Source: Octopus vulgaris (lineage: Eukaryota). From it: 64,000 nt of DNA. Location of the stretch: positions 23,684,001 through 23,748,000 of the forward strand of contig OX597841.1 of the NCBI GenBank assembly GCA_951406725.2. Direction: 5' to 3'. Under the pieces are notes generated by a model. The model was not told the DNA's origin, made no database searches, and saw nothing but the letters and a program-made list of their open reading frames with translations. The translations under genes and the position numbers were made by a program. This document shows, in pieces, positions 4,050 to 58,622 of this stretch (within the stretch, counting starts at the first letter, position 1; the number at the start of each line of letters is the position of its first letter).

Positions 4050-4115
4050 ATGTCTCGTCACTATATGCCTGAAAGGCGGTTCGCACCCGACCCCAATGAT
4101 CAGAACGGCAGAATG
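4050..4115 (+). CDS. Candidate upstream/first exon (MSRHYMPERRFAPDPNDQNGRM), possibly of CHTOP
   Basis: Unique CpG-containing sequence with ATG at 4050, 22 open codons and a perfect donor ATG|GTAAGT at 4115/4116. Phase 0 would join in frame to acceptor 47032 (ISNK-MAQVP). No homology recognised. Confidence 0.3.
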
Positions 4116-5325: not shown

Positions 5326-6234
5326 TGATGTGTCCATCTCATCGTTTATTCTGACTAAGTGTATCTAGGATTATATTATTTTACGTGCTATCGTTCTTGT
5401 TTAACCCCGAGTCAGTCACGAATAGCTCTATAACCCAAAGATACCTAGCCGTGATCTTTAGTGATAACAGTAGTTCGTATACATAAGTAAATTCGATGTG
5501 ATGTGGTAGAGGAAACATGTGATTTCATCTTAGACGTTTCCAGCGCTCCGTCAATGACCATCGCGTCCTTTTTGGTTTTGTATTTTATTTATAGCTAACT
5601 TATATTCCTCAATACAAACTTTTTCAACTGCTGTGCCATGTATGGCTTGCATTCGCATATATGTGCGGCAATTTTTTTTTTAGACGAGTCAGGAAAATGC
5701 AGATGATTTATGCACCGTACCTCTGCATGAATATATATATTTTGCAACAAAGTACAGTCCATATATCCATCACTGTTTTCATACTTAAAATGATGAAGCC
5801 TTTAGAACGATCATCGTGTACTACGCTTTATATGGTGTCCTGTAGATAGAAAAAAAAGATTAAAACTTGAGGCTCCAATGTGTCCCTGTTTAGGTACTTT
5901 TACTCAGATTTTTTTAATGCGAAGCAAAGGAGATCTGGTTCCTATTTCTACGAGATCTGTTTGATATTTTAGAAGTCTCTTTCATCAGCACATACTGCGA
6001 TTTAATTGATATTTCTACTAATATCTATTATCAGGTAGAAGCATCTCTCTGGGTAGCTGATTAAACATGGCAGGTGTGATTTGAGGGAAATTTGGCTGTT
6101 ATTTCTACCCTGTCTACTACTATGTAAAGGTCTACCTCGTTAGTTCATATATATAGGTGTGATGTGAGATAGATTTAGCTGGTATTTCCAGCTGCTTTAC
6201 AACTATGTAGAAGCCACCCTCCTTGGCTCATGAG

Positions 6235-13159: not shown

Positions 13160-16100
13160 ACAAAATCTTTTCATTGACCCTTAACATAGCTACTGTGGGT
13201 CCCCAATTTACTATTTCACTTGTGTGGACCCTTAAAAATCTTATATGGACCCCCAGGTGTCATATGGACCCTGGTTGAGAAGCACTGAGTTAGACCCTTC
13301 AAGGTGGTACCTCAGCATAGCCACAACCCAGTAACTGATTTTGCAATAAATACATCAAAACCAACCCTTTTCATTGACACTTAACATAGCTACTGTGGGT
13401 CCCCAATTTACTATTTCACTTGTGTAGACCCTTAAAAATCTTATATGGACCCCCAGGTGTCATATGGACCCTGGTTGAGAAGCACTGAGTTAAACCCTTC
13501 AAGGTGGTGCCTCAGCATAGCCACAATCCAGTAACTGATTTTGCAATAAATACATCTAAACCAACCCTTTTCATTGACACTTAATATAGCTACTGTGGGT
13601 CCCCAATTTACTATTTCACTTGTGTGGACCCTTCAAGGTGGTGCCTCTGCATAGCCACAATCCAGTAACTGATTTTGCAATAAATACATCAAAACCAACC
13701 CTTTTCATTGACACTTAACATAGCTACTGTGTGTCCCCAATTTACTATTTCACTTGTGTAGACCCTTAAAAATATTATATGGACCCCCAGGTGTCATTGG
13801 ACCCTGGTTGAGAAGCACTGAGTTAAACCCTTCAAGGTGGTGCCTCAGCATAGCCACAATCCAGTAATTGATTTTGCAATAAATACATCTAAAACAAAAT
13901 CTTTTCATTGACCCTTAATATAACTACTGTGGCTCCCCAATTTACTGTTTCACTTGTGTGGACCCTTAAAAATCTTATATGGACCCCCAGGTTGAGAAGC
14001 ACTGAGTTAAACCCTTCAAGGTGGTGCCTCTGCATAGCCACAATCCAGTAACTGATTTTGCAATAAATACATCTAAACCAACCCTTTTCATTGACTACTT
14101 AACATAGCTACTGTGGCTCCCCAATTTACTATTTCACTTGTGTGGACCCTTAAAAATCTTATATGGACCCCCAGGTTGAGAAGCACTGAGTTAAACCCTT
14201 CAAGGTGGTGCCTCAGCATAGCCACAATCCAGTAACTGATTTTGCAATAAATACATCTAAACCAACCCTTTTCATTGACACTTAACATAGCTACTGTGGG
14301 TCCCCAATTTACTATTTCACTTGTGTGGACCCTTAAAAATCTTATATGGACCCCCAGGTTGAGAAGCACTGAGTTAAACCCTTCAAGGTGGTGCCTCAGC
14401 ATAGCCACAATCCAGTAACTGATTTTGCAATAAATACATCTGAACCAACCCTTTTCATTGATACTTAACATAGCTACTGTGGGTCCCCAATTTACTATTT
14501 CACTTGTGTGGACCCTTCAAGGTAGTCCCTTGCATAGCCACAATCCAGTAACTGATTTTGTAATAAATACATCTGAACCAACCCTTTTCATTGATACTTA
14601 ACATAGCTACTGTGGGTCCCCAATTTACTATTTCACTTGTGTGGACCCTTAAAAATCTTATATGGACCCCAGGTTGAGAAGCACTGAGTTAAACCCTTCA
14701 AGGTGGTGCCTCAGCATAGCCACAATCCAGTAACTGATTTTGCAATAAATACATCTAAACCAACCCTTTTCATTGACACTTAACATAGCTACTGTGGGTC
14801 CCCAATTTACTATTTCACTTGTGTGGACCCTTAAAAATCTTATATGGACCCCCAGGTTGAGAAGCACTGAGTTAAACCCTTCAAGGTGGTGCCTCAGCAT
14901 AGCCACAATCCAGTAACTGATTTTGTAATAAATACATCTAAACCAACCCTTTTCATTGATACTTAACATAGCTACTGTGGGTCCCCAATTTACTATTTCA
15001 CTTGTGTGGACCCTTCAAGGTAGTCCCTTGCATAGCCACAATCCAGTAACTGATTTTGTAATAAATACATCTGAACCAACCCTTTTCATTGATACTTAAC
15101 ATAGCTACTGTGGGTCCCCAATTTACTATTTCACTTGTGTGGACCCTTCAAGGTAGTCCCTTGCATAGCCACAATCCAGTAACTGATTTTGTAATAAATA
15201 CATCTAAACCAACCCTTTTCATTGATACTTAACATAGCTACTGTGGGTCCCCAATTTACTATTTCACTTGTGTGGACCCTTCAAGGTAGTCCCTTGCATA
15301 GCCACAATCCAGTAACTGATTTTGTAATAAATACATCTAAACCAACCCTTTTCATTGATACTTAACATAGCTACTGTGGGTCCCCAATTTACTATTTCAC
15401 TTGTGTGGACCCTTCAAGGTAGTCCCTTGCATAGCCACAATCCAGTAACTGATTTTGTAATAAATACATCTAAACCAACCCTTTTCATTGATACTTAACA
15501 TAGCTACTGTGGGTCCCCAATTTACTATTTCACTTGTGTGGACCCTTCAAGGTAGTCCCTTGCATAGCCACAATCCAGTAACTGATTTTGTAATAAATAC
15601 ATCTAAACCAACCCTTTTCATTGATACTTAACATAGCTACTGTGGGTCCCCAATTTACTATTTCTCTTGTGTGGACCCTTCAAGGTGGTGCCTCTGCATA
15701 GCTACAATCCAGTAACTGATTTTGCAATAAATACATCTAAACCAACCCTTTTCATTGACACTTAACATAGGTACTGTGAGTCCCTAATTTACTATTTCAC
15801 TTGTGTGGACCCTATGGGCCCTGGTTGAGAAGCACTGAGTTAAACCCTTCAAGGTGGTGCCTCAGCATGAACACAATCCAGTAACTGAAACAATAAATAC
15901 ATCTAAACCAACCCTTTTCATTGACACTTAACATAGCTACTGTGGGTCCCCAATTTACTATTTCTCTTGTGTGGACCCTTCAAGGTGGTGCCTCTGCATA
16001 GCTACAATCCAGTAACTGATTTTGCAATAAATACATCTAAACCAACCCTTTTCATTGACACTTAACATAGCTACTGTGGGTCCCCAATTTACTATTTCTC

Positions 16101-18850
16101 TTGTGTGGACCCTTCAAGGTGGTGCCTCTGCATAGCTACAATCCAGTAACTGATTTTGCAATAAATACATCTAAACCAACCCTTTTCATTGACACTTAAC
16201 ATAGCTACTGTGGGTCCCCAATTTACTATTTCTCTTGTGTGGACCCTTCAAGGTGGTGCCTCTGCATAGCTACAATCCAGTAACTGATTTTGCAATAAAT
16301 ACATCTAAACCAACCCTTTTCATTGACACTTAACATAGCTACTGTGGGTCCCCAATTTACTATTTCACTTGTGTGGACCCTTCAAGGTGGTGCCTCTGCA
16401 TAGCCACAATCCAGTAACTGATTTTGCAATAAATACATCTAAACCAACCCTTTTCATTGACACTTAACATAGCTACTGTGGGTCCCCAATTTACTATTTC
16501 TCTTGTGTGGACCCTTCAAGGTGGTGCCTCTGCATAGCTACAATCCAGTAACTGATTTTGCAATAAATACATCTAAACCAACCCTTTTCATTGACACTTA
16601 ACATAGCTACTGTGGGTCCCCAATTTACTATTTCTCTGTGTGGACCCTTCAAGGTGGTGCCTCTGCATAGCTACAATCCAGTAACTGATTTTGCAATAAA
16701 TACATCTAAACCAACCCTTTTCATTGACACTTAACATAGCTACTGTGGGTCCCCAATTTACTATTTCTCTTGTGTGGACCCTTCAAGGTGGTGCCTCTGC
16801 ATAGCTACAATCCAGTAACTGATTTTGCAATAAATACATCTAAACCAACCCTTTTCATTGACACTTAACATAGCTACTGTGGGTCCCCAATTTACTATTT
16901 CTCTTGTGTGGACCCTTCAAGGTGGTGCCTCTGCATAGCTACAATCCAGTAACTGATTTTGCAATAAATACATCTAAACCAACCCTTTTCATTGACACTT
17001 AACATAGCTACTGTGGGTCCCCAATTTACTATTTCACTTGTGTGGACCCTTCAAGGTGGTGCCTCTGCATAGCCACAATCCAGTAACTGATTTTGCAATA
17101 AATACATCTAAACCAACCCTTTTCATTGACACTTAACATAGCTACTGTGGGTCCCCAATTTACTATTTCACTTGTGTGGACCCTTCAAGGTGGTGCCTCT
17201 GCATAGCCACAATCCAGAACTGATTTTCAATAAATACATCTAAACCAACCCTTTTCATTGACACTTAACATAGCTACTGTGGGTCCCCAATTTACTAACT
17301 TGTGTAATCTTCAAGGTGGTGCCTCAGCATAGCCACAATCCAGTAACTGATTTGCAATTAATACATCTAAACCAACCCTTTTCATTGACACTTAACATAG
17401 CTACTGTGGGTCCCCAATTTACTATTTCACTTGTGTGGAACCCTTCAAGGTGGTGCCTCAGCATAGCCACAATCCAGTAACTGATTTTGCAATTAATACA
17501 TCTAAACCAACCCTTTTCATTGACACTTAACATAGCTACTGTGGGTCCCCAATTTACTATTTCACTTGTGTGGACCCTTCAAGGTGGTGCCTCTGCATAG
17601 CCACAATCCAGTAACTGATTTTGCAATAAATACATCTAAACCAACCCTTTTCATTGACACTTAACATAGCTACTGTGGGTCCCCAATTTACTATTTCACT
17701 TGTGTGGACCCTTCAAGGTGGTGCCTCTGCATAGCCACAATCCAGTAACTGATTTTGCAATAAATACATCTAAACCAACCCTTTTCATTGACACTTAACA
17801 TAGCTACTGTGGGTCCCCAATTTACTATTTCACTTGTGTGGACCCTTCAAGGTGGTGCCCTCTGCATAGCTACAATCCAGTAACTGATTTTGCAATAAAT
17901 ACATCTAAACCAACCCTTTTCATTGACACTTAACATAGCTACTGTGGGTCCCCAATTTACTATTTCACTTGTGTGGACCCTTCAAGGTGGTGCCTCTGCA
18001 TAGCCTCTGCATAGCTACAATGCCCCAGCCAGTAATGCCTCTGCATAGCTACAATCCAGTTGATTTTACAATAAATTGATTTGTTCAACTAAAACCCTTC
18101 AAGGTGGTGCCCCAGCATGGCCACAGTCCAATGACTGAAACAAGTAAAAGATAAACCCCCAGGTGTCATATACTGGATTGATTTGTTCAACTAAAACCCT
18201 TCAAGGTGGTGCCCCAGCATGGCCACAGTCCAATGACTGAAACAAGTACAAAGATAAAAGATATACTGTGGGATTGATTTGTTCAACTTGTGTAAAACCC
18301 TTCAAGGTGGTGCCCCAGCATAGCCACAGTCCAATGACTGAAACAAGTAAAAGATAAAATATTCTGGGATTGATTTGTTCAACTAAAACCCTTCAAGGTG
18401 GTGCCCCAGCATGGCCACAGTCCAATGACTGAAACAAGTAAAAGATAAAAGATATACTGGGATTGATTTGTTCAACTAAAACCCTTCAAGGTGGTTACTA
18501 TTTCACTTGTGTGGACCCTTCAAGGTGGTGCCTCTGCATAGTACACAATCCAGTAACTGATTTTGCAATAAATACATCTAAACCAACCCTTTTCATTGAC
18601 ACTTAACATAGCTACTGTGGGTCCCCAATTTACTATTTCACTTGTGTGGACCCTTCAAGGTGGTGCCTCTGCATAGCCACAATCCAGTAACTGATTTTGC
18701 AATAAATACATCTAAACCAACCCTTTTCTATTTGACACTTCAACTCTAGCTACTGTGGGTCCCCAATTTACTATTTCACTTGTGTGGACCCTTCAAGGTG
18801 GTGCCTCTGCATAGCCACAATCCAGTAACTGATTTTGCAATAAATACATC
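13160..18850. repeat. Satellite array with 134-bp and 180-bp variant units
   Basis: CTACTGTGGGTCCCCAATTTACTATTTC has period 134 (16071, 16205) or 180 (14111, 14291). The unit contains the SINE-tail motif CCCTTCAAGGTGGTGCC. Confidence 0.95.
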
Positions 18851-21140
18851 TAAAGATATACTGGGATTGATTTGTTCAACTAAAACCCTTCAAGGTGGTG
18901 CCCCAGCATGGCCACAGTCCAATGACTGAAACAAGTAAAAGATAAAAGATATACTGGGATTGATTTGTTCAACTAAAACCCTTCAAGGTGGTGCCTCTGC
19001 ATAGCTACAGTCCAATGACTGAAACAAGTAAAAGATAAAAGATATACTGGGATTGATTTGTTCAACTAAAACCCTTCAAGGTGGTGCCCCAGCATGGCCA
19101 CAGTCCAATGACTGAAACAAGTAAAAGATAAAAGATATACTGGGATTGATTTGTTCAACTAAAACCCTTCAAGGTGGTGCCCCAGCATGGCCACAGTCCA
19201 ATGATTTTGAAACAAGTAAAAGATAAAAGATATACTGGGATTGATTTGTTCAACTTAAAACCCTTCAAGGTGGTGCCCCAGCATTTACAGTCACAATGAC
19301 TGAAACAAGTAAAAGATAAAAGCCATATACTGGGATTGATTTGTTCAAGCTAAAACCGGTTTCAAGGTGATCACCGCAGTGAAGCATGGCCTAGTCAGTC
19401 CAATGACTGAAACAAGTAAAAGATAAAAGATATACTGGGATTGATTTGTTCACATGGCCTTCAAGGTGGTTGAGCATGGACTCGCAGTCCAATGACTGAA
19501 ACAAGTAAAAGATAAAAGATATACTGGGATTGATTTGTTCAACTAAAACCCTTCAAGGTGGTTCCAGCAGAAGGTCCAATGACCAAGTAACTTCTGTTGA
19601 TTTGTTCAACTAAAACTTTCCCTTCAAGGTTTTTGCCTCCTGCATCTTGCAGTCCAATGACTGAAACAAGTAAAAGATAAAAGATATACTGGGGATTTGA
19701 ACCCCTTATGAGCCAGGCATGGCTCGAGAAGGAACAAATTTCATTTGTGTAGACCAGTGGTTTTCAACCAGTGTTCCTCGGAACCTTAGGGTTCCGCCAG
19801 TACAGTCCAGGGGTTCCGCAAGAAGTTGCAAAACTGCTAAAATCGGCAGTAATTTTTAATTCTCCTGTGCAGATATGTGTGCATAAGACAATTAAATTAT
19901 TGCACAGGGGTTCCTCGAGCCAGTGGAATGTTTCCTTGGGGTTCCGCTCCAGCAAAAAGTTTGAAAAACACTGGTGTAGACCCTTAAAAATATACTGGGA
20001 TTGATTTGGTTCACCACTGAGTAAACCCTTCAAGGTGGTGCCCCAGCATGGCCACAGTCCAATGACTGAAATAAAGTAAAAGATAAAAGATATACTGGGA
20101 TTGATTTGTTCAACTAAAACCCTTCAAGGTGGTGCCCCAGCATGGCCACAGTCCAATGACTGAAACAAGTAAAAGATTTGTAGCCAGATGGTTTGGGAAT
20201 ACAGCTGTTGCCATACTATAGACTGGAAGGTGGTGCCCCAGATCCTGTTTAGTCCCAATGACTGAAACAAGTAGATAAAAGATAATACCAACTGGGCCTC
20301 CTTGTTAGTCGCTGTTTAACTATCTGCTCTGATTGATAAGTCAATCAATCAGTAATGAAGGATAAAAGATATACTGGGATTGATTTGTTCAACTAAAACC
20401 CTTCAAGGTGTGCCCCAGCATGGCCACAGTCCAATGACTGAAACAAGTAAAAGATAAAGATATACTGGATTGATTTGTTCAACTAAAACCCTTCAAGGTG
20501 GTTCGGCAAAAGCATGGCCGATAGAATGACTGAAACAAGTAAAAGATAAAAGATATACTGGGATTGATTTGTTCAACTAAAACCCTTCAAGGTGGTGCCC
20601 CAGCATGGCCACAGTCCAATGACTGAAACAAGTAAAAGATAAAAGATATACTGGGATTTGTATTCAACTAAAACCCTTCAAGGTGGTGCCACCAGCAGTG
20701 TTTGTCCACAGTCCAATGACTGAAACAAGTAAAAGATAAAAGATATACTGGGATTGATTTGTTCAACTAAAACCCTTCACTTAGGTGGTGCCCCAGCAAA
20801 AGGAGACTGAAACAAGTAAAAGATAAAAGATATACTGGGATTGATTTGTTCAACTAAAACCCTTCAAGGTGGTGCCCCAGCATGGCCACAGTCAAATGAC
20901 TGAAACAAGTAAAAGATAAAAGACCATCTGTGTAAACACATTTAAAAAAAGAAAAAAACTTTTACAGTCTGTCGGCCCATTTGATGCTCTACCAGTCAAT
21001 GGTTACTGCTGTAATGAGCTGAGGGTTTTGTTTTTATTAGACAGATGGTTGCAAATTGAGATATACTGGGAAGGATTTGTTCAACATAAACCCTTCAAGG
21101 TGGTGCCCCAGACATGGCCACAGTCCAATGACTGAAAAAA
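18060..21140. repeat. 93-bp satellite derived from a SINE 3' end, interleaved with the previous array
   Basis: CTGGGATTGATTTGTTCAACTAAAACCCTTCAAGGTGGTGCCCCAGCATGGCCACAGTCCAATGACTGAAACAAGTAAAAGATAAAAGATATA; period 93 (18861, 18954). Confidence 0.9.
19755..19973. mobile_element. hAT (Charlie-like) MITE with 8-bp TSD
   Basis: TIRs CAGTGGTTTTCAA / TTGAAAAACACTG and a perfect target duplication GTGTAGAC at 19747-19754 and 19974-19981. Confidence 0.9.
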
Positions 21141-46996: not shown

Positions 46997-47043
46997 TTAA
47001 TATCCTCTGTGTTTTATCATTCTCTTTGCAGATATCCAATAAG

Positions 47044-47105
47044 ATGGCTCAAGTCCCTGCTAAGATAGTGCTAAAGAGCACTACAAGGATGTCACTGAAT
47101 GACCG
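47044..47105 (+). CDS. CHTOP: CHTOP first conserved coding exon (exon spans 47032-47105)
   Basis: Acceptor TTCTCTTTGCAG|47032, AAGATGG start, and donor CG|GTGAG. MAQVPAKIVLKSTTRMSLNDR matches the CHTOP N-terminus as recalled (KVVLKSTTKMSLNER). Confidence 0.93.
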
Positions 47106-47526
47106 GTGAGAAAATATTGCCTTCCGTTTGGAAATTGATTTTATTTCAACTTGGCTTTGCTCAGGCAGATCATATATATATATATGTATATATATCTATA
47201 TATAAATATATATATATATTTATAAATATTATATATATATTATAAATATTATATATATATATTTGATATATTATAAAAATTATATATAATTTTATATATT
47301 GTGAATATATTTTATATATTACAAATATATATATTTTATATATATATATTATAAACATATTATGTATATTTTTATATATATAAAGGAAGTATGCTTTCAA
47401 AATGGTCTGCGAAATAAATATATATATTTGAATAAAGTTAAGTTTATGAAAATGCAACAAAAGTGCTACCCTGATGACTTATTATGTGGGTTGGTGGCTC
47501 TGGCGGCGGCCACAGCAGCATCGGTT

Positions 47527-47806
47527 GTGGGACTCGGTCGTCGAGGGGGAGAGGTGAGGGTGTGGGTGAGTGTAGAGGGGGCCCTGTGCGTGGCGTCTTG
47601 ACTCGGGCTGTGATGTCGGAGGGGGCCCTGGCCCACTCTTCCGTTGCCTCCTCGTCCATGGTATGATGGGCCGCAATCTCTCACCCCCGTGCGTCTCGCT
47701 CCGAGTTGTTCATGGCCACGCCCTCTTTTGGGTTTACTCCGCTACACTACATTCCACCCTCACTCCCTGCCTCCTCACCACCCTGTGTCTCTTCTCGACT
47801 CCCCAC
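47527..47806 (+). promoter_or_regulatory. Predicted long GC-rich intronic RNA stem-loop
   Basis: Eight short helices in nested order, e.g. GUGAGGGUG 47554 / CACCCUCAC 47755, GCGUGGC 47588 / GCCACGC 47715, ACUCGGG 47601 / UCCGAGU 47700. Confidence 0.6.
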
Positions 47807-48213
47807 TTGCCATCCTTCTCCATTTCAGCATTCTCTGTCATCACCATCGTCATCATCTTTCTGCCATCAACATGTCCTCAAAGACTGATTCTCTCCCTCC
47901 TTGTCGATTCTTGTCCACAACTTGCCAGCCAGCCAGCCAGCCAACCAACTGACTAACCAGCCAGCCAGCCAGCTGGGTGGTGACACACAACAGTTGCCTC
48001 TCTTTTCTTTTGTTCTTTCTTTCTTTCTTGCTCTCTTCCTCTGTTGTTGTGTTGCCTCACGTCAGCCCACAGTCACAGTGGTAGCCACATCTGAGCTTAA
48101 TTCCAAAAAGGGCAAAAAAAAAAAATAAATACCACATAATATCTATACATGTCCATGTATATACACTCTCTCAATACACACATACACACACACATATATG
48201 CATATAAATATAT

Positions 48214-48294
<81 letters not shown>

Positions 48295-48441
48295 TAAATG
48301 TATACGTGTGTATAACATAGTTGTGTGCATGTATTGTATAAAATGTATGCACATACTGTGGTAAGTGTATACATTCCAGCTCTGATCCTAAAATGCTACA
48401 AAGTGGTGTGTAGAATTTACATGTGTATATAAATGTTTGTA

Positions 48442-48475
<34 letters not shown>

Positions 48476-48529
48476 TATATGGACGCACGTTTCTGGATTA
48501 GAGTCATAAGATTAATTTCCTTTATCAAC

Positions 48530-48701
48530 ATAATATTCCGATAAATATATCTAGAAATGCTAGGAAATCTTACCCTCCATATTTCCGACCAAGCGACGTG
48601 GATATGCTGATTAGCTTCTGTATGTTCCGATGTCGCTTGGTCGGAAATATAAGAAGGTAAGATTTCCTAGCGTTTCTTAGATTTATTTACCGGAATATTA
48701 T
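48530..48701. repeat. Imperfect inverted repeat (~70-bp arms)
   Basis: ATAATATTCCG...CTAGGAAATCTTACC...ATATTTCCGACCAAGCGAC / GTCGCTTGGTCGGAAATAT...GGTAAGATTTCCTAG...CGGAATATTAT. Confidence 0.85.
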
Positions 48702-48719
48702 ATATGTATATATATATAT

Positions 48720-49296
48720 ATTCTTTTATTTGTTTCAGTCATTTGACTGCAGCCATCCTGGAGCACAACAATTAGTTGAACAAACCGATCCTAGTACTTA
48801 TTCTGTCGGAATCTTTTGCTGAACTGCTAAGTTACGGGGGAGATAGTAAACACACCAGCATCGGTTATCAAGCGATCGGGTGGAGGGACAAACACAGACA
48901 CACAAACATATACATATTTGTATATGACGGGCTTCTTTCGGTTTCCATCTACCAAATCCATTCACAAGGCTTTGGTCGGCCCAAAGCTATTCTTTGTAAG
49001 CCTAGTACTTATTCTGTCGGAATCTTTTGCTGAACTGCTAAGTTACGGGGACATAGTAAACACACCAGCATCGGTTATCAAGCGATCGGGTGGAGGGACA
49101 AACACAGACACACAAACATATACATATTTGTATATGACGGGCTTCTTTCGGTTTCCATCTACCAAATCCATTCACAAGGCTTTGGTCGGCCCAAAGCTAT
49201 AGCAGAAGACACTTCCCCAAGGTGCCACGCAGTGGGATGAACCCAGAACCATGTAGTTAGTAAGCAAGATTCTTACCATGCAGCCACTCATGCACC
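48720..49296 (-). mobile_element. Family-B SINE (minus) with internal 210-bp duplication
   Basis: CTAGTACTTATTCTGTCGGAATC at 48791 and 49001. Confidence 0.85.
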
Positions 49297-49999
49297 TTAA
49301 TCCGTTCGTGGCCGTTTGCCAGCTCTGTCTGGCACCTGTGCAGGTGGCACGTAAAAAGCACCTACTACACTCACGGAGTGGTTGGCATTAGGAAGGGCGT
49401 CCAGCCGTAGGAACACTTCCAAATCTGACTGGGCCTGATGAAGCCTTCCGGCTTCACAGACCCCAGTTAAACCGTCCAACCCATGCTAGCATGGAAAGCG
49501 GACGCTAAACGATGATGATGATGTGCTAGCCTGTTGGAATACCCTGGTCTGTACCTTGCTGTACTCAAGAGGACCCATCCTCCACAGTAGAAGCATTAAG
49601 GCTGCATCTCTTGGTGAAGAGGATTGGCCTGCAAAAGTTTTGTGCTGGTGCCTCATGAAAGTGCCTGTGCCAATGGTATGTATATGGCGGTGCCCCAGCA
49701 TGGCCACAGCTCATGAGCTGAAACTAGAATCAATCATATGCACGCTCGTGCCAGTGCCGCTTGAAAAACACCCTTCGCACACTGTAAAGTGGTTGGCATT
49801 AGGAAGGGCATCCAGCTGTAGAAACCAAACCAAATTGCACTGGAATCCGGTGCGGCTCTCTGGTCTGGCTTGCCAGCTCCAACCCATGCCAGCATGGAAA
49901 AACACATCAAAGGATGATGATGATGATTTTACCGCACCAGGCAACTGAGAGCAAAAACAAATGCAGCATAAGGAAAATACAACATATTTCTCCCTAGAA

Positions 50000-50500
50000 A
50001 AGTGCCTGCAAACATCCAGATTAGATATATCAATGAAACAGGCCCCTTTTGCAAAGTTTTCCTCTTCCCCAATGCCCGCTCTGATATGGTCTTGGAAAAG
50101 TGACTGCATTCCAGGTTCAGATGGGAGTCCTTAGCTCATGCTGCCTTGCTCTTGATAGCAAGTGCCAATGAGCCATTGGCCCTATGGGGCTGTCCATCAC
50201 CACTTCTCATAAGGCAGCCAAAGGGTTTCAAATCAGGAGGTATTTGGGGCTTAAAAGATCGTCTTTGGGGAGTGGTTTACACCTTTTTCTTGCTGCATGT
50301 GTATTGCTCTCTCTTTCTTCCTTTGGACGTGTACCTGATGTCCTCATCTGCGATGCATCATACAGTGGACTCTGCCACCTTGAGATTGGAGGCCCTGCAA
50401 TATGCTAAATTTTTCAATGTTTGTGTCCAGGGTCTTTTTCCTGGTAAAACTCACCCACTCCGATGACTACAGTTTACTAAAGTTGTGTTCACAAATGGCT
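50000..50500 (-). mobile_element. Possible highly decayed Tc1/mariner transposase remnant
   Basis: PPDLKPFG on the minus strand near 50240 resembles SPDLNPLD; otherwise weak. Confidence 0.3.
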
Positions 50501-51148
50501 GGCATACCTGATATATATATATTTATATATATATGTATATTTGCATGCATGTTTATATACACTCTCAGACACCTCAGTAGCCAAGAAAAATATATTACCA
50601 AAATAATAATAGTAATATTATTAATAATAATATTATAATGTTCTATGCTTGCATGAAAAAAAAAATAACAATATGATAAATATTGAGGATCAAATCCAGA
50701 GCTGGGATCGTCAGAAATAAGATTTCTGGTTTTGCTGCAACTCCCTTATCCCTTGCCATCACAACATTCTCTCTCTGTCATACACACTTTTGTGTAAGCC
50801 CATTGCTTTCTTAAATACCATACACCTTGAGAGAGAGTGAGGACGTACGCAGCCTTGATGACGGAACCTAACCCATCCACATCGATCCTGAATGGCTGCG
50901 TCTCTGCCACTCTTGGCTCATCACCATTTCTACTACCTCTGTTCTTCTGCTGGCACACTGTTCTTTCTTTCTACCCTCATTGTGTCACACTGTGCCATTT
51001 CTGTTTTCACCATACTACTGTTCTACCTTCTTTTGGACTTTGGTACGACCTCTTCACTACGGCCCCTATTCCGTCCCGCACCTTGTCCAATGGGTCTACA
51101 TCCTGCCACTCCTACTCCCTAATCACTTCCACTCACCTGTATCTAACA

Positions 51149-51722
51149 CTAGCAGTATTGCCCGGCTCAACGGGGGTTTCAGGGAGTCGCTGGCGATGTA
51201 TCGCGATGATCAAAAATCCGGCCTGCTAAAATTTGGTTAAAGTGATTCAAACTGCAGACTCAATGCAAAATGGTCACATTTAATTCAAAGCGTTAAAAAT
51301 GTTATGAAAACAATTGGTATTTGTTCACAAAGTCCAAACGATTAATACGAAAAAACCCTCCAGGCTACATCCTGAAAATTCATTTCTTTACCGAATTTCT
51401 ACAATGTTTACGGCGATTCGTTTTTATATCTTGATTTTTTATTTTCCATGCAATTTACGCATGCTTGCACACGTGGTGAACACAGTTCATGTCAAACAGC
51501 TGACTGAGTAAAGTTCACTATTCAATGCATGGGATAAGGCCTAAACAAACACATTATCGATTTTTGCACTTGTGAGATGAATTTCGAAACAGAAATAGCG
51601 CAGTTCAATTTTCATTTGCCTAAACTTTAAGTGACCCATTTTTGATGGTTCTACGATTTGTTGGCTAGATGTGCCGGGAAGTTAAACACACAGACACACA
51701 AGTTGAGTTCTATATATATAGA
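51149..51722 (-). mobile_element. Non-autonomous Helitron
   Basis: Plus strand begins A|CTAGCAGTATTGCCCGG and ends TATATATATAGA|T, i.e. TC...CTAG on the minus strand. Confidence 0.8.
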
Positions 51723-51839
51723 TGTCTCTAACTCTTTTAAGATGGAATTGTGTGGATCATAGAAATTTAGCTGCCGTTTCTAACAGGCTAACCGACTTTA
51801 TTGAGACTTTCTAGTTGCACTGTACTATATTTAGTTATC

Positions 51840-52800
51840 GCTGTTGAACCCTAGGTCTGCTCTGATCCAGATGTTTCAGCTGTTACCTTCCTTTATTCAG
51901 GCAAAGTCTACCTAAGCCTACATTACTCAATGTATCCTTCCTTGTTCTTGTTGCTTTGCTCCAGAGGTGACCATCATGTCATTTATTTAGACATAATGTA
52001 TCTAGGACTACACTATCCATTGTGTCCTTCCTAGCTCTTGTGGTTTAACCCTAGGTTGGCTCTGATCCAGCAAACCTATGATCATCCTGGCTTCTATTGA
52101 AATGGATTGTGTCTCTGACTGCATTATTTAATGTGCCATTCCTAGTTTTTGGTCCAGAGGTGACCATCCTGTCATATAGTTTAACATAGTGTATCTAGGA
52201 CTACATTATCTAATGTGTCGTTCCTAGTTCTTGTTTAGCCACAGGTCAGTCCTGATCCAGCAGACCTATGATCAAAGATATTCCAGCTGTGACCATCCTG
52301 TCTTTTATTATTCAGGCATAGTGTATCTAGGAGTACATTATCTAATGTGTCCTTCCTTGTTGTTGTTTAGCCACAGGTCAGTCCTGATCCAGCAGACCTA
52401 TGATCAAAGACATTCCAGCTGTGACCATCCTGTCTTTTATTATTCATGCATCGTGTATCTAGGAGTACATTATCTAATGTGTCCTTCCTTGTTGTTGTTT
52501 AGCCACAGGTCAGTCCTGATCCAGCAGACCTATGATCAAAGATGTTCCAGCTGTGACCATCCTGTCTTTTATTATTCATGCATAGTGTATCTAGGAGTAC
52601 ATTATCTAATGTGTCCTTCCTTGTTGTTTAGCCACAGGTCAGTCCTGATTCAGCATGCTCCAAAGTACTACTGGAGGTAACTAGCCTGTCGTTAATTCAG
52701 ACATAGTGTACCTAAGAGTACATCATCTAATGTGTCCTTCGGGTCTTGTTTAGCCCCAGGTCAGTCTCGATCCAGCATGATCGTAAGTGCCACCAGTGGT
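51840..52800. repeat. Degenerate-to-young tandem repeat (132-bp period in 52200-52660)
   Basis: TACATTATCTAATGTGTC at 52202, 52334 and 52466. Segment 51886-52074 is the source of the 61140 array. Confidence 0.85.
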
Positions 52801-53277
52801 GACTGTTCTGTCTTTTATTCTGGCAGTGTGTGTAAGCTGACACCATTCCGTCCTTCCTTCCTTGCTTCTATTTCTAGCAAGTCAAAGTGACTCTACAGCT
52901 GCTGCTTTGTCGATTTCTCGTTAGGAATTTAGTTAAAACAAACAAATACTAAAAATAATATTTAGAGTAAAATAGGCAACAGTCAACCTGAATGGCTGTC
53001 TGTTTCTCTCCCAAATTGCTGTTGTGGACACCAGTCGTTAGTGAACTAATTAACGAGTGACAAGCATTAGTATGGTACACTGGTAGTTCAGTTAGTTACC
53101 AGGTCGGGTGTCAATTGGAGTAATTCTACACCTCCCCCACCATCAAAGCTGGCCTTGGTCTTTTTTTTTTAGTTTTTGTTTTTGTTCCATGTTTCAGTCA
53201 TTTGACCGTGGCCATGCTGGGGCACTTGTGCATGTTTCAGTCATTTGACTGCAGTCGTGTTGGGGCACAGCTTTCAC

Positions 53278-53735
53278 ATCAGGCCCCCACCACTAGGCTC
53301 CAGCCACCAGGCTCTGGCCAGCAGGTATCACTACCAGGCTCCAGCCATCAGGCCCCCACAACTTGGCTCCAGCCATCAGGCCCCCACCACTAGGCTCTGG
53401 CCAGCAGGTTCCACCACCAGGCTCCAGCCATCAGGCTCTGGCCAGCAGGTATCACAACCAGGCTCTAGCCAGCAGGTCCCACCACCAGGCTCCAACCAGC
53501 AGGTCCCACCACCAGGCTCCCTCCACAAGGCTCCAGCCATCAGGCCCCATCCACCGGCTCCAGCCATCAGGCCCCCACCACAAGGCTCCAGCCATCAGGT
53601 TCTGGCCAGCAGGTATCACTACCAGGTCCCAACCATCAAACCCCAACCACCAGGCCCCAACAGCAGGTTCCAGCCACCAGGCTCCGACCATCAGGCCCCA
53701 ACCACCAGGCTCCAGCCATCAGGCCCCCAACCACC
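53278..53735. repeat. GC-rich minisatellite (CCACCAGGCTCCAGCCATCAGGC-type units)
   Basis: Seen directly. Confidence 0.9.
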
Positions 53736-54192
53736 AGTCTGTGGACCATTTCATACTTGGCGATGCAGAAAGAATATAAAAAGGTTGACGGGGCGGCGGG
53801 GACTGCTGCCACTGTTCCAGTTCGTTTCTACTTCCGTATCACTCTCTCCTCATCACTCATCATTCTCATCTCATCATTCGCCCCCATTTGTGACACCCCT
53901 GAAAAGACACCTCAGTTTGAAGCTGAACATAAATCAGGGTGTCCACCCCACTCTACCATCTATCTCTCTCTTGAAATAAGGGAGTGTGCAGCATGGAATT
54001 TCAAAAGCTCAGGTAGTATATATATATACATCTACATTGCTCTTATATTTCATATGTATATAAAATATATATGTGTGTATATATATAATATATATATGTG
54101 TATATATATATATCTTAAGTGCTTATTTGATTGCATTGGAAAAAAAAAGCTTTTATCAAGCAACAACATTTTGCCAACAAATCATAATAATG

Positions 54193-54224
<32 letters not shown>

Positions 54225-55162
54225 TTGCAAATGAAAAACGATGTGGTAAAATGAATAAAAATTTGCAAAATCCTAAAACCCTCAAAACGGATAAACATAT
54301 ATTTATGCAAATATATGTAATATATTATTATGTTTAATGTGTGTATAATTAAATGAAAACAGCATGTGGCATAAGAAAAATTTGAAGAAAAAAAAAAAGA
54401 GAATCGAAAAACTTGCTCAAGGCAAGATTCTCATGCTGAGTGGCCTCAACACAACATACACTTTGTATTTTTTGCCCTGCATAATTTTTGCTCACGATAT
54501 TTCTGCTGCTGTTTCCACAACTCCACCCCTGCCTTGTGCTGCCTTGCCCTTGCCCTTCTCTTCTCTTCTCTCTGACCCCCATCATTGATGTCTGTCTTAG
54601 CTGCAGTGGCCCAGCACAGTTGTGGAACAGTACAGCATCCCCTCATCATCATCATCGTCATCGTCATCATCTGACCACCTCTTGTAAGACAAAGGAACAG
54701 GCACTTGTTTATCTTCAAAGTGCTCTCTCTGTCTCTCTCCCTCCCTCCCTCCCTCTGTCTCTCTCTTTCTTTCTCTCACTCAGCTGTTTGGTCCCTTTTT
54801 ATCCGATCTGGTGTATGTCTCGTTTTTTGTTTGGACTTCAATTGTATTCCCCCCCATAACTGGCTTCATTTACTGGGTCAAGGGTCGAGTCTCATCTCAG
54901 GTGCTTTCAGTTTTGCATCTTTGCTTTGAATCCCCACATTCACTCTTTCCTCCTTCCACTCTCTCTCTCTTCCATCCTTCCTCTCTCATTTACAATAGTT
55001 TCTGCTTTTTTATGGGCTTATTAGGGTTCACCATTCTGTACCCTTACTTAATCCACTTCTCCTTTGCACATCCACTTCTGCTCCTTCTCTCTCTCTCTGT
55101 CACACAGTGTGTGTGTATGTGTTTACATATATAGATGTATATATATATATATACATACATAC

Positions 55163-55193
<31 letters not shown>

Positions 55194-55217
55194 GATATAT
55201 ATATATACCTACATGTG

Positions 55218-55265
<48 letters not shown>

Positions 55266-55279
55266 TTTATATATATATA

Positions 55280-55669
55280 CTAGCAGTATCGCCCGACGTT
55301 GTTCGGGTTTGTTTCGACCCGCTGGAATTGGAATTTTTGAAAAGTAAAAATTTTGCATTATGTAGCTTGTTATTCTCTTCAAGTGAACATTTTTCTGGTT
55401 GAAATACACCGAAAAGTGGCGACACAGCAGTGAAAAAAATCGTAAAAAATAGGGATTTTCATAGAAAAAAAGCACCTTTTTGATGTAAATAATTTTTGGT
55501 GTTAACATGGTCTGATTTGAATTTTATCTTCTACGGAAGGAAGATCAACCCTTCTATCATACTCTCAATTTTGGTCAACTTGTGCCGCAGGGTCTCGGAG
55601 GAGATAGTGTTAGTTGAAGGCTACCAAACCTGGCGCACACAGACAACTTCAGCTTTATATAGAGAGAGA
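55280..55669 (-). mobile_element. Non-autonomous Helitron
   Basis: A|CTAGCAGTATCGCCCGACGTTGTTCGGG ... ACAACTTCAGCTTTATATAGAGAGAGA|T; termini are reverse complements of 26649-27043. Confidence 0.85.
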
Positions 55670-56125
55670 TAACACACACACATCTATGTATGTATGTATG
55701 TATATATGTACATCTGTCCACTTCTTGCCATATTTTTATCCTTCACTTCCTACACACTCTCACACACAGACACACACACACCTTCTTAGCTTACTATTTT
55801 CTTTCAACAATTGACACTGTCATATATGTATATGTTTGCGTGTCTATGTGTGTAAAGAGAAAGTGTGCTGATAGGCGGAGTAAAAGCCTTTGAAGTGAGA
55901 GAGGGAAATCGTAAAATATTGAGTTTTTTCAAATTTTTGCTTAATTGGGGGTCAAATTGAAAGAAATTTATATGCCATGACCGAATCGAATCTACTTCAA
56001 AAAATCATGGGTAAATTCTAATTGAAGAAATTCTATATTGTAGAATTGTACTAAAAAGGAACATGGGAACAGGCAGAGAAAATCTGCCTTTTATCATAAG
56101 AGATATATATACATGTGTATATATG

Positions 56126-56156
<31 letters not shown>

Positions 56157-56190
56157 TTAAAAAAGATGTGGAACACGAGTTGTGATAGAT

Positions 56191-56489
56191 AAAAAAGGAA
56201 ATGAAGAAAATGCTGACAAAATAATTTAAGTAAGGGAGAGTGTATTTAATTAGGTGAAAGTTCTTTTTACCGGTTGCGCATTTGTTATGCTTATCAAAAG
56301 ATATTTTTTTAAGTGAGATAGAGTTCCTTTCTGATAAAAAATCTATCAGAAAGGAACTCTATCTCACTTAAAAAAATATCTTTTGATAAGCATAACAAAT
56401 GCGCAACCGGTAAAAAGAACTTTCACCTAATTAAATACACTCTCCCTTACTTAAATTATTTTGTCAGCATTTTCTTCATTTCCTTTTTT
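56191..56489. repeat. Perfect palindrome with 146-bp arms and a 7-nt loop (Penelope-like terminus)
   Basis: 56191-56336 is the reverse complement of 56344-56489 with no mismatch seen; loop AAAAATC. Confidence 0.95.
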
Positions 56490-56869
56490 TATATATATAT
56501 AGATATGTGCATATATTTATGTTTGTGTGTATGTCTACATGTGTGTGTGTATATGTATATGCACACAATCACAAATCTGAAACACTAATCACACATCAAC
56601 ATATCCCCAAAGCGCTCATTCTTTCTGTTTGTTTCTTCTTTCACCTCACCCCCTCACCTTTTTTCCTTCTTTTCTATGTCGCATCTTATTTACTTTGTCT
56701 TATTCTCCTAACTATTTTGAGATACGACCTGAGCGTTTCGTAGGTTTTATTATCACAGCCTTACCTAGATATGTTTCAGGGAAATTTATACAAGTTATGT
56801 TGTATTCATAGATAGATTTGTGGGGCTTCTAGTGACTCCGTTAATCGTCCAATGTATAGCAGCACTTGG

Positions 56870-57175
56870 CCCTTCAGCATATAGCAACCCAATCAGTTCT
56901 TCAGCATATAGCAACCCCAGTTGGTCCTTCAGCATATGGCAACTCAATCAGTTCTTCAGCATATAGCAGCACCAGTTGGTCCTTCAGCATATAGCAGCCC
57001 CAATCAGTTCTTCAGCATATAGCAACCCTAATTGGTCCTTCAGCATATAGCAACCCAATCAGTTCTTCAGCATATCAGCATATAGCAGCCCCAATCAGTT
57101 CTTCAGCATATAGCAACCCCAATTGGTCCTTCAGCATATAGCAACCCAATCAGTTCTTCAGCATATAACAACCCC
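56870..57175. repeat. ~27-bp minisatellite (TTCAGCATATAGCAACCC...)
   Basis: Seen directly. Confidence 0.9.
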
Positions 57176-58060
57176 TGTCAGCCCTGCAGTATACCAAATT
57201 TCCATAACCAATACTGATTTATTTCTGGTAATTCTACAGTGGCAAGCTAGCGGAATCGTTACTGTACTGGACAAAAATGCTCAGAAGCATTTCTCTGGCT
57301 CCTATGTTCTTAAGTTCAAATGCCACCGTGGTCAACTTTTGATTTTCATCCTGGGGTCAATGTAATCAACTGACCCCTTTCCCCTTAAATTTGAAGCCTT
57401 TTTGCTTATAATAGAATTATTAATGCTAAATCTTATTTTATTTTCGTAAAGTATACTAGCCATCTCAATATGGCTAACCCCTAAGGGTGGGTGTTACTGT
57501 AGCTTGTAGCCCCAGGAGATCATCGTCTCCAGCTGGCTTTAGGCACACTTTCTGTGCTCTTATGGTATTTGTAAAGGGAGGTCATCCCTCTCTCGTAAGC
57601 CTAAGTGATACGCACGGACTGCAGTTTCGGGGTTGTTGCCTCTTGTCTACGCACGGACTGCAATTTCGGGGTTGTTGCCTCTTGTCAACGTACGGCAATC
57701 ACCGGTTTTACATCTCGTTCAGAGATTTATTATTGCTTATTTTATTTTATTTTGAGAAAACTTCGAAGCCATTCAATCTCTTCCTTTCTTGCTGTTATCA
57801 TCATCCCATCATCATCATCATCACCACTTTCATTTCTCTTGTCATCGTTATAATCCTTGTCATTATCATCAGTTCTTTTACTCTCCCTCATCAGCTCCTT
57901 AATCATCATTTCTCCGACATCGTCGTCACATCACTTTGTTGAGACGAAAGGATTTTTCTTCTTTTTTTCCTTCTTGTTTGAAACTAATTGAAACGAGCAA
58001 AAAAAAAACCCCCCAAAAAAAGACAAAGTGAAAAACACAACCATCATGACGATTGATATG

Positions 58061-58091
<31 letters not shown>

Positions 58092-58468
58092 ATAATAATG
58101 TTGGCAAAATAAGCATATGAAATATATAAATATATATTTGCAAATACATAAGGGCAAAATGAAAAATATTAAAGAAAATAAACAAAGGCCTAAGTTTATG
58201 ATTATTTTGGGCTCATGTAATATGTTGTTGTGATTTTATGGTTGTGTGTGCCACAAGCCACATTTAACGACCACAATGTGTCGCCGTGGCTCTCCTTTCC
58301 CCCTCTCTCTTTTTCTCTCACTCTCCGCTCCCCCTTTCTCTCTCTTTCTGTTACCCCCCCCCCCCCCGGCCCCTTGCCGTGGCCCCGTTACCCCCTCTCC
58401 GTCCCCACCCACCCTCAGTTCGTAAGTGATGAATATACTTTACCGCCCTCCTTTCCCCCCACATGAAG

Positions 58469-58622
58469 CTTCACGAACATACAGAAGAGTCGTCCACCCG
58501 TGACGGTCCAGAACATTCGTGCCAAGATGGCGGCACAGCAGCAGGCGTCGGTGCGGAACCGTAGGCTAGCCCAGCAGATGGCTAACCGACCGAGCGTGAT
58601 CGCGGCCCTGAAGATCAAGAGG
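58469..58622 (+). CDS. CHTOP: CHTOP second conserved coding exon
   Basis: Acceptor ...ATGAAG|C completes CG+C (Arg), and the exon ends at donor AGG|[57 protein letters not shown] matches the CHTOP motif [25 protein letters not shown] as recalled. Confidence 0.95.

Follow-up and report, generated by a model that had tools for sequence, protein, structure and literature searches.

The window analysed here is a stretch of 64,000 nucleotides (nt) from Octopus vulgaris (assembly GCA_951406725.2, contig OX597841.1, positions 23,684,001 to 23,748,000 of the forward strand). It contains the 5' part of the gene CHTOP, whose second intron a first-pass annotation had read as an invertebrate version of the human CHTOP switch, in which intron retention leads to nonsense-mediated decay (NMD). 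Exon 1 was located by tblastn with the O. vulgaris/O. sinensis protein. The translation of exon 3 is 100% identical to CHTOP of O. vulgaris, O. sinensis and Argonauta and 96% identical to that of a cuttlefish. The N-terminal motifs of the CHTOP/FOP family, including KIVLKSTT..SLNDRF, are present and identical (100%) to named cephalopod CHTOP proteins; the C-terminal domain PF13865 is carried by identical homologues, with the later octopus exons lying outside the window. Because exon 1 ends at 4115, the intron at 47106-58468 is intron 2, and the intron upstream of it, which follows exon 1, spans 43 kb. The gene features are:

4050 to 4115, plus strand: coding part of CHTOP exon 1 (MSRHY...NGRM), donor ATG/GTAAGT
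47032 to 47105, plus strand: CHTOP exon 2, 74 nt, ISNK-MAQVPAKIVLKSTTRMSLND-R, with a CAG acceptor
47106 to 58468, plus strand: CHTOP intron 2, GTGAGA...ATGAAG, 11,363 nt, phase 2, orthologous in position to the vertebrate intron
47107 to 47109, plus strand: in-frame TGA on read-through (GAC CGG TGA)
58466 to 58468, plus strand: non-YAG acceptor AAG, also present in fish-type and most other loci (see below)
58469 to 58622, plus strand: CHTOP exon 3, FTNIQKS...ALKIKR, assigned by protein identity to cephalopod CHTOP

Intron 2 begins with GT at 47106 and ends with AG at 58467-58468. As the first-pass annotation had stated, it interrupts the Arg codon of SLND-R-F (as CG/C), and read-through gives GAC CGG TGA, an immediate stop. 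That annotation had cautioned that the stop is weak evidence, and the caution can be strengthened: the stop carries almost no weight, because any phase-2 donor of the form GTAA, GTGA or GTAG yields one.

To place the intron among other animals, we used 25 host-DNA or transcript-like CHTOP loci from a metagenome scan, of which 3 were spliced, 2 ended before the acceptor, 20 contained the acceptor and 12 contained both intron ends; the labels 'fish-type' and 'insect-type' are taken from protein likeness. Intron 2 interrupts the identical codon in the identical phase in all 12 loci with both ends, including fish-type L015, which provides the vertebrate comparison, and insect-type L007. An immediate stop on read-through was found in 11 of these 12. 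Gene calls that read through into an exon 3 resembling named oyster and mussel proteins also break between R and F. The proposed equivalence of intron position is thus supported by fish-type, insect-type and other invertebrate loci, and the sequences support orthology of octopus CHTOP intron 2 with the intron of fish-type and other animal loci.

AAG is rare among splice acceptors. Intron 2 ends with it in octopus and, once nine insect-type loci and one duplicate are collapsed, in 8 of the 11 other non-redundant loci, these 8 belonging to 4 of the 7 other lineages. At intron 1, where acceptors were assigned by eye, CAG was read in all of 8 loci, whereas AAG ends intron 2 in 5 of the same 8 (Fisher p 0.026, the loci not being independent). 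In 34 read-through proteins, our own reading of the residue before the exon gave a purine at position -3 in 10, a pyrimidine in 9 and an ambiguous result in 15. Together with the covarying hairpin described below, which lies in the same intron of other invertebrates, the conserved AAG supports that part of the first-pass annotation which saw an old regulatory site here; intron 2 is probably an ancient regulated intron. A protein tree made by a quick method and a homologue search did not place the hosts of L004/L005 and L017-L020, which we therefore call unplaced invertebrates. Viral contigs contained no CHTOP locus, and prokaryote genomes contained one C-terminal fragment only.

Some loci showed further peculiarities. 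L003 (1-2510) is a CHTOP copy that lacks intron 3 and an acceptor before exon 2 and has kept intron 2, with a GTGTG donor; it is perhaps a partly processed copy. In some insect-type loci, intron 2 contains an insertion of 2.6 kb (L012:4021-9536 versus L007, L010 and L013). Between L007 and L010, identity over the first 300 nt and the last 1.1 kb of intron 2 is 95-98%, compared with 81-93% for the flanking introns.

The strongest new result is a UAAG-bulged hairpin and lies outside the octopus window, in intron 2 of other invertebrates. Across 11 loci, the motif GTAAG[TA]G, which was first noticed in the same loci as were counted, occurs 10 times in 16.0 kb of intron-2 sense sequence, compared with 2 times in 40.0 kb of other sense sequence and 4 times in 56.0 kb of antisense sequence. 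In L017-L020 it forms the bulged 3' strand of a helix in which 18 of 18 pairs are kept with 6 compensatory changes, a structure predicted from those same four sequences. Covariation as high was seen in none of 500 shuffles and exceeded all slid controls. A covariance model built from L017-L020 located another copy in L017 (E 4e-5) and, weakly, one in L005 (E 0.22). With the refined model, L004, which had been held out, was recovered (E 0.002), as was a further copy in L005 (E 0.09); each of the 8 matches to this model lies within intron 2 on the sense strand. The copies found by covariance model are:

L004:1-63: hairpin copy
L005:5263-5339 and 5359-5444: two hairpin copies
L017:410-480 and 998-1072: two hairpin copies
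L018:655-725: hairpin copy
L019:5196-5266: hairpin copy
L020:1486-1557: hairpin copy

The bulge reads UAAG(U/A), and the element occurs in two lineages, with two copies each in L005 and L017. For the pairs L017/L019 and L004/L005 it is the sole alignable part of the intron-2 interior. A search of Rfam with the bulged hairpin returned no match. The core motif is also present twice in fish-type L015 and twice in insect-type loci. Reading the L017-L020 element as a 35-nt micro-exon was considered and dropped, since L019 lacks the AG and in L020 the GT is altered. The hairpin is a small candidate for an RNA recognised by the N-terminal domain of CHTOP.

Within octopus intron 2, a motif scan and a search for paired half-sites yielded the following candidates:

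58416 to 58433, plus strand: candidate 3' half containing a donor-like GUAAGU, 47 nt ahead of the acceptor (motif scan)
54798 to 54810, plus strand: candidate 5' half of a bulged helix, chosen post hoc as best partner of 58416-58433
48300 to 48385, plus strand: weak local hairpin candidate with GUAAGU, TA/TG-rich (z -1.8; rank 2 in the motif scan)

Among ~128,000 positions, 58416-58433 ranked 5 when one insertion was allowed and 753 without. In 118 kb of real sequence, comprising intron 2, intron 1 and the minus strand, no segment paired with it better than 54798-54810. The two halves, 3.6 kb apart, would pair over 6 base pairs (bp), a UAAGU bulge and 6 of 7 bp. A partner as good arose in 21 of 150 shuffles, and in 2 of 150 it also fitted the 5'-half consensus, the search pattern having been written after the 3' site had been seen. 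A further site at 53032 was rejected, its partner being no better than chance (56 of 150 shuffles). The local candidate at 48300-48385 was not matched by the covariance models.

The first-pass annotation had also singled out three non-repetitive, structured blocks in an intron described as otherwise nearly all repeats. The blocks, and the most prominent palindrome of the intron, are:

47385 to 48181, plus strand: block 1, no dispersed repeat in the window; G-run-rich part at 47480-47680
53745 to 55106, plus strand: block 2, rich in pyrimidines, CAT and AAT; free of repeats dispersed in the window
57696 to 58468, plus strand: block 3, extending to the acceptor, no dispersed repeat in the window
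56191 to 56489, no strand assigned: inverted repeat of 146 bp, perfectly matched, around a loop of 7 nt; probably an inserted element

In composition, the blocks are rich in pyrimidines and in CAT and AAT. They are free of repeats dispersed elsewhere in the window, as had been claimed, but 13-21% of their sequence is tandem repeat. The description of the remainder was, as far as the repeats masked here can tell, overstated: 42% of intron 2 is masked, compared with 74% of intron 1, and besides the blocks intron 2 contains 5 unmasked stretches of at least 250 nt (3.9 kb), intron 1 containing 18. Note that masking covered tandem and within-window repeats, so that some unmasked stretches may still be repeats. 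The strong hairpins of intron 2 are two palindromes, both outside the blocks, namely the inverted repeat listed above and a second one at 48530-48701 (z -17). It is possible that they form long double-stranded RNA and serve as substrates of adenosine-to-inosine editing, or that they are small inserted elements. Block 1 came out on top as a partner for the C-rich end of the intron only through being the stretch richest in G; it was rejected as a long-range partner, having a local partner of its own.

G-runs are concentrated in block 1, where 47480-47680 contains 45 per kb versus about 6 per kb. The protein hnRNP H binds G-runs. About 450 nt into the intron lie its two best U1-complementary donor-like sites, 47554 and 47566, with U1 binding values of -10.2 and -9.9 compared with -8.3 for the true donor. 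Two such sites arose in 6 of 1000 shuffles, and the remaining 10.8 kb of intron 2 contains no donor-like site as strong. The distribution of AATAAA is also uneven. All 5 sense copies in intron 2 lie within the blocks, the other 8.4 kb having none (a complete absence was seen in 0 of 100 shuffles). When tandem arrays are set aside, the remainder of intron 2 beyond the blocks has 11 antisense copies and no sense copy, versus 18 and 18 in intron 1 (p 0.003, a post hoc comparison). Enrichment of AATAAA in the blocks was rejected, as the 5 observed copies are fewer than the 7.2 expected from the blocks' own composition.

Several observations concern the regions upstream of intron 2. An in-frame upstream ATG in exon 1 (4050-4115) adds 26 residues ahead of the conserved MAQVP start, and a decapod-like protein has an N-terminal extension that differs from the one encoded by octopus exon 1. 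In intron 1, 13200-21100 consists of long tandem arrays with garbled copies that look like assembly noise. Isoform X5 of O. sinensis contains an insert after exon 3 that resembles the translation of a common repeat found in the window at ~18860-20660 on the minus strand; this resemblance suggests an exonised short interspersed element (SINE) in the gene model.

The closest known system is human CHTOP itself. According to PMC5175361, the human gene is autoregulated by intron-2 retention and NMD, with a stop at the 5' end of the intron, and the event is full retention. The same source gives 81 nt for human exon 2 and 1.64 kb for intron 2, and by our own reading of its coordinates the regulatory element lies ~330-470 nt into the intron, where hnRNP H binds. 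We infer that the 81 nt comprise 65 coding nt and 16 nt of untranslated region, which would fit the octopus intron position. Octopus shares with human the gene, a short exon with the N-terminal ATG that precedes the second intron, the stop at the intron's 5' end and a G-run-rich sequence a few hundred nt into the intron. In L005, L017 and fish-type L015 the motif is present twice in the intron, which recalls the two human stem-loops with repeats, to which the N-terminal domain of CHTOP binds. In contrast, the octopus intron measures 11.4 kb rather than 1.64 kb, and no local stem-loop was found in octopus.

Two other systems offer partial parallels. The unproductive splicing of SRSF5 is deeply conserved, is seen in transcripts and is tied to highly conserved sequence, and turnover of such events is described among SR-gene paralogues (PMC4379411). 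CHTOP resembles SRSF5 as an RNA-binding-protein gene in which a regulatory splicing position has lasted across animals, but shares across animals splice-site features and a small hairpin only. The constitutive transport element (CTE) in intron 10 of NXF1 likewise is a structured intronic element of an mRNA-export gene, conserved from fish to human (PMC4338338); however, the CTE helps the retained RNA to be exported and translated, whereas the CHTOP event leads to decay. Passages of PMC6675937, PMC6547761 and PMC12398788 gave no further information about invertebrates. In the literature searched, neither retention of a CHTOP intron nor a hairpin in intron 2 was listed for any invertebrate, a point on which subscription papers and the supplement of PMC5175361 may bear.

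By analogy with the human gene, octopus intron 2 may still be CHTOP-sensitive and slowly excised, the retained RNA carrying an early stop, so that the intron would act as a feedback switch. We put this forward tentatively, as the most probable of the explanations weighed here but at somewhat short of an even chance. Excess CHTOP would slow the removal of intron 2, and the RNA that keeps the early stop is predicted to be held back or degraded. On the human model (PMC5175361), the weak AAG acceptor would make excision slow, CHTOP would bind exon 2 and an intronic element, hnRNP H/F on the G-runs would oppose CHTOP, and the U1-like decoy sites would compete with the true donor. Given an intron of 11.4 kb, much of the retained RNA may stay nuclear and not reach NMD. 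A more far-reaching version, which we regard as unlikely, would have a bilaterian-old switch that was built on a weak AAG acceptor and on a UAAG-bulged hairpin ancestral to the human stem-loops, and whose helix was rebuilt in octopus at long range (54798-54810 with 58416-58433), near the branch region, surviving the stretching of the intron to 11.4 kb by transposons.

A number of results weigh against such a switch. Both hairpin covariance models lacked an intron-2 match under E 3 in the window. Octopus intron 2 has 3 copies of GTAAGTG compared with 0.8 expected, a count inflated by repeats, and the half-site 58416-58433 alone is indistinct from SINE-derived sites. The structure ascribed to the blocks was not confirmed, as 1 of 33 windows of 150 nt folded at z < -2.5 and block 1 taken as a 321-nt unit reached z -1.9, a fold equalled by 6 of 100 shuffles; pairing between blocks did not exceed shuffles (best case 4 of 25). 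The blocks matched no non-cephalopod intron 2 among the compared loci, and with no hairpin-model match in the window the claim that they form a conserved module is not supported. Elsewhere, both models miss the motif copies of fish-type and insect-type loci, and L003, L023 and L024 lack GTAAG[TA]G. L003 has no immediate stop on read-through. The acceptor is CAG or TAG in insect-type loci, L023 and L024, and AAG is missing from 3 of 7 other lineages.

The absence of a hairpin-model match in the window and the unstructured blocks favour the chief rival, an ordinary, constitutively spliced intron. On this view the switch based on the hairpin has been lost in the octopus lineage, AAG is a relic, and the blocks consist of old intronic sequence in which microsatellites have decayed. 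The triviality of the stop, the 18 similar unmasked stretches in intron 1, the tolerance of kilobases of insertions and the turnover of such events among SR-gene paralogues (PMC4379411) all point the same way. What such an intron would not lead one to expect is the persistence of AAG both in octopus and across lineages, a pair of unusually strong donor-like sites within G-runs, an inserted part devoid of sense AATAAA and a repeat fill of 42% rather than 74%; we consider this explanation rather unlikely, yet more probable than the remaining ones. The same donor-like sites raise the prospect of splicing from 47554 or 47566 to exon 3, which would keep ~450 nt of the intron with the TGA and produce an NMD substrate short enough for export. 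U1 binding is stronger at both sites than at the true donor and has no equal in the rest of the intron, and an 11.4-kb retained intron would be a poor export substrate. However, the human event is full retention (PMC5175361), and L020 has kept the hairpin with its GT site altered, which points to a binding element rather than a donor; use of an alternative donor is improbable in our view.

Control by intronic polyadenylation, or by nuclear detention without NMD, would have transcripts end within the blocks, at poly(A) signals that U1-like sites close by hold in check. The confinement of sense AATAAA to the blocks agrees with it, but their number falls below expectation and the introns of the other loci show no such pattern, leaving it less likely again. 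Finally, the blocks could be exons of a nested or antisense transcript, or a small-RNA host, unrelated to CHTOP control, as every block has purine-rich minus-strand frames of 60-109 codons. These frames are low-complexity repeat translations; a Pfam search of 6 block frames gave none above the cut-off, and none of the 50 matches listed in an Rfam search reached the gathering score. We find this very hard to credit.

A search of sequencing runs provided a lead that we do not count as evidence: of 489 words from 53745-58622, a stretch of which exon 3 makes up 3%, 11 of 22 runs contain at least half (0.51-0.71). The 11 runs come from one organism and 3 studies, with assemblies of 86-199 million letters and an RNA label that is a guess; runs of two other organisms contain 0.23-0.30 of the words. 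No RNA dataset containing the stretch was listed and the records identify none of the 22 runs as RNA, so that they give no evidence on expression. Because runs were ranked by share, without a neighbouring-intron control or an alignment, the search is uninformative on retention and on which part is conserved.

In conclusion, if octopus intron 2 does act as a CHTOP-sensitive switch, a feedback loop described only in human cells would extend to invertebrates and date to early animals. This would be a moderate surprise, because deep conservation of unproductive splicing has precedent. The octopus gene would then show whether such a switch survives a several-fold expansion of its intron.

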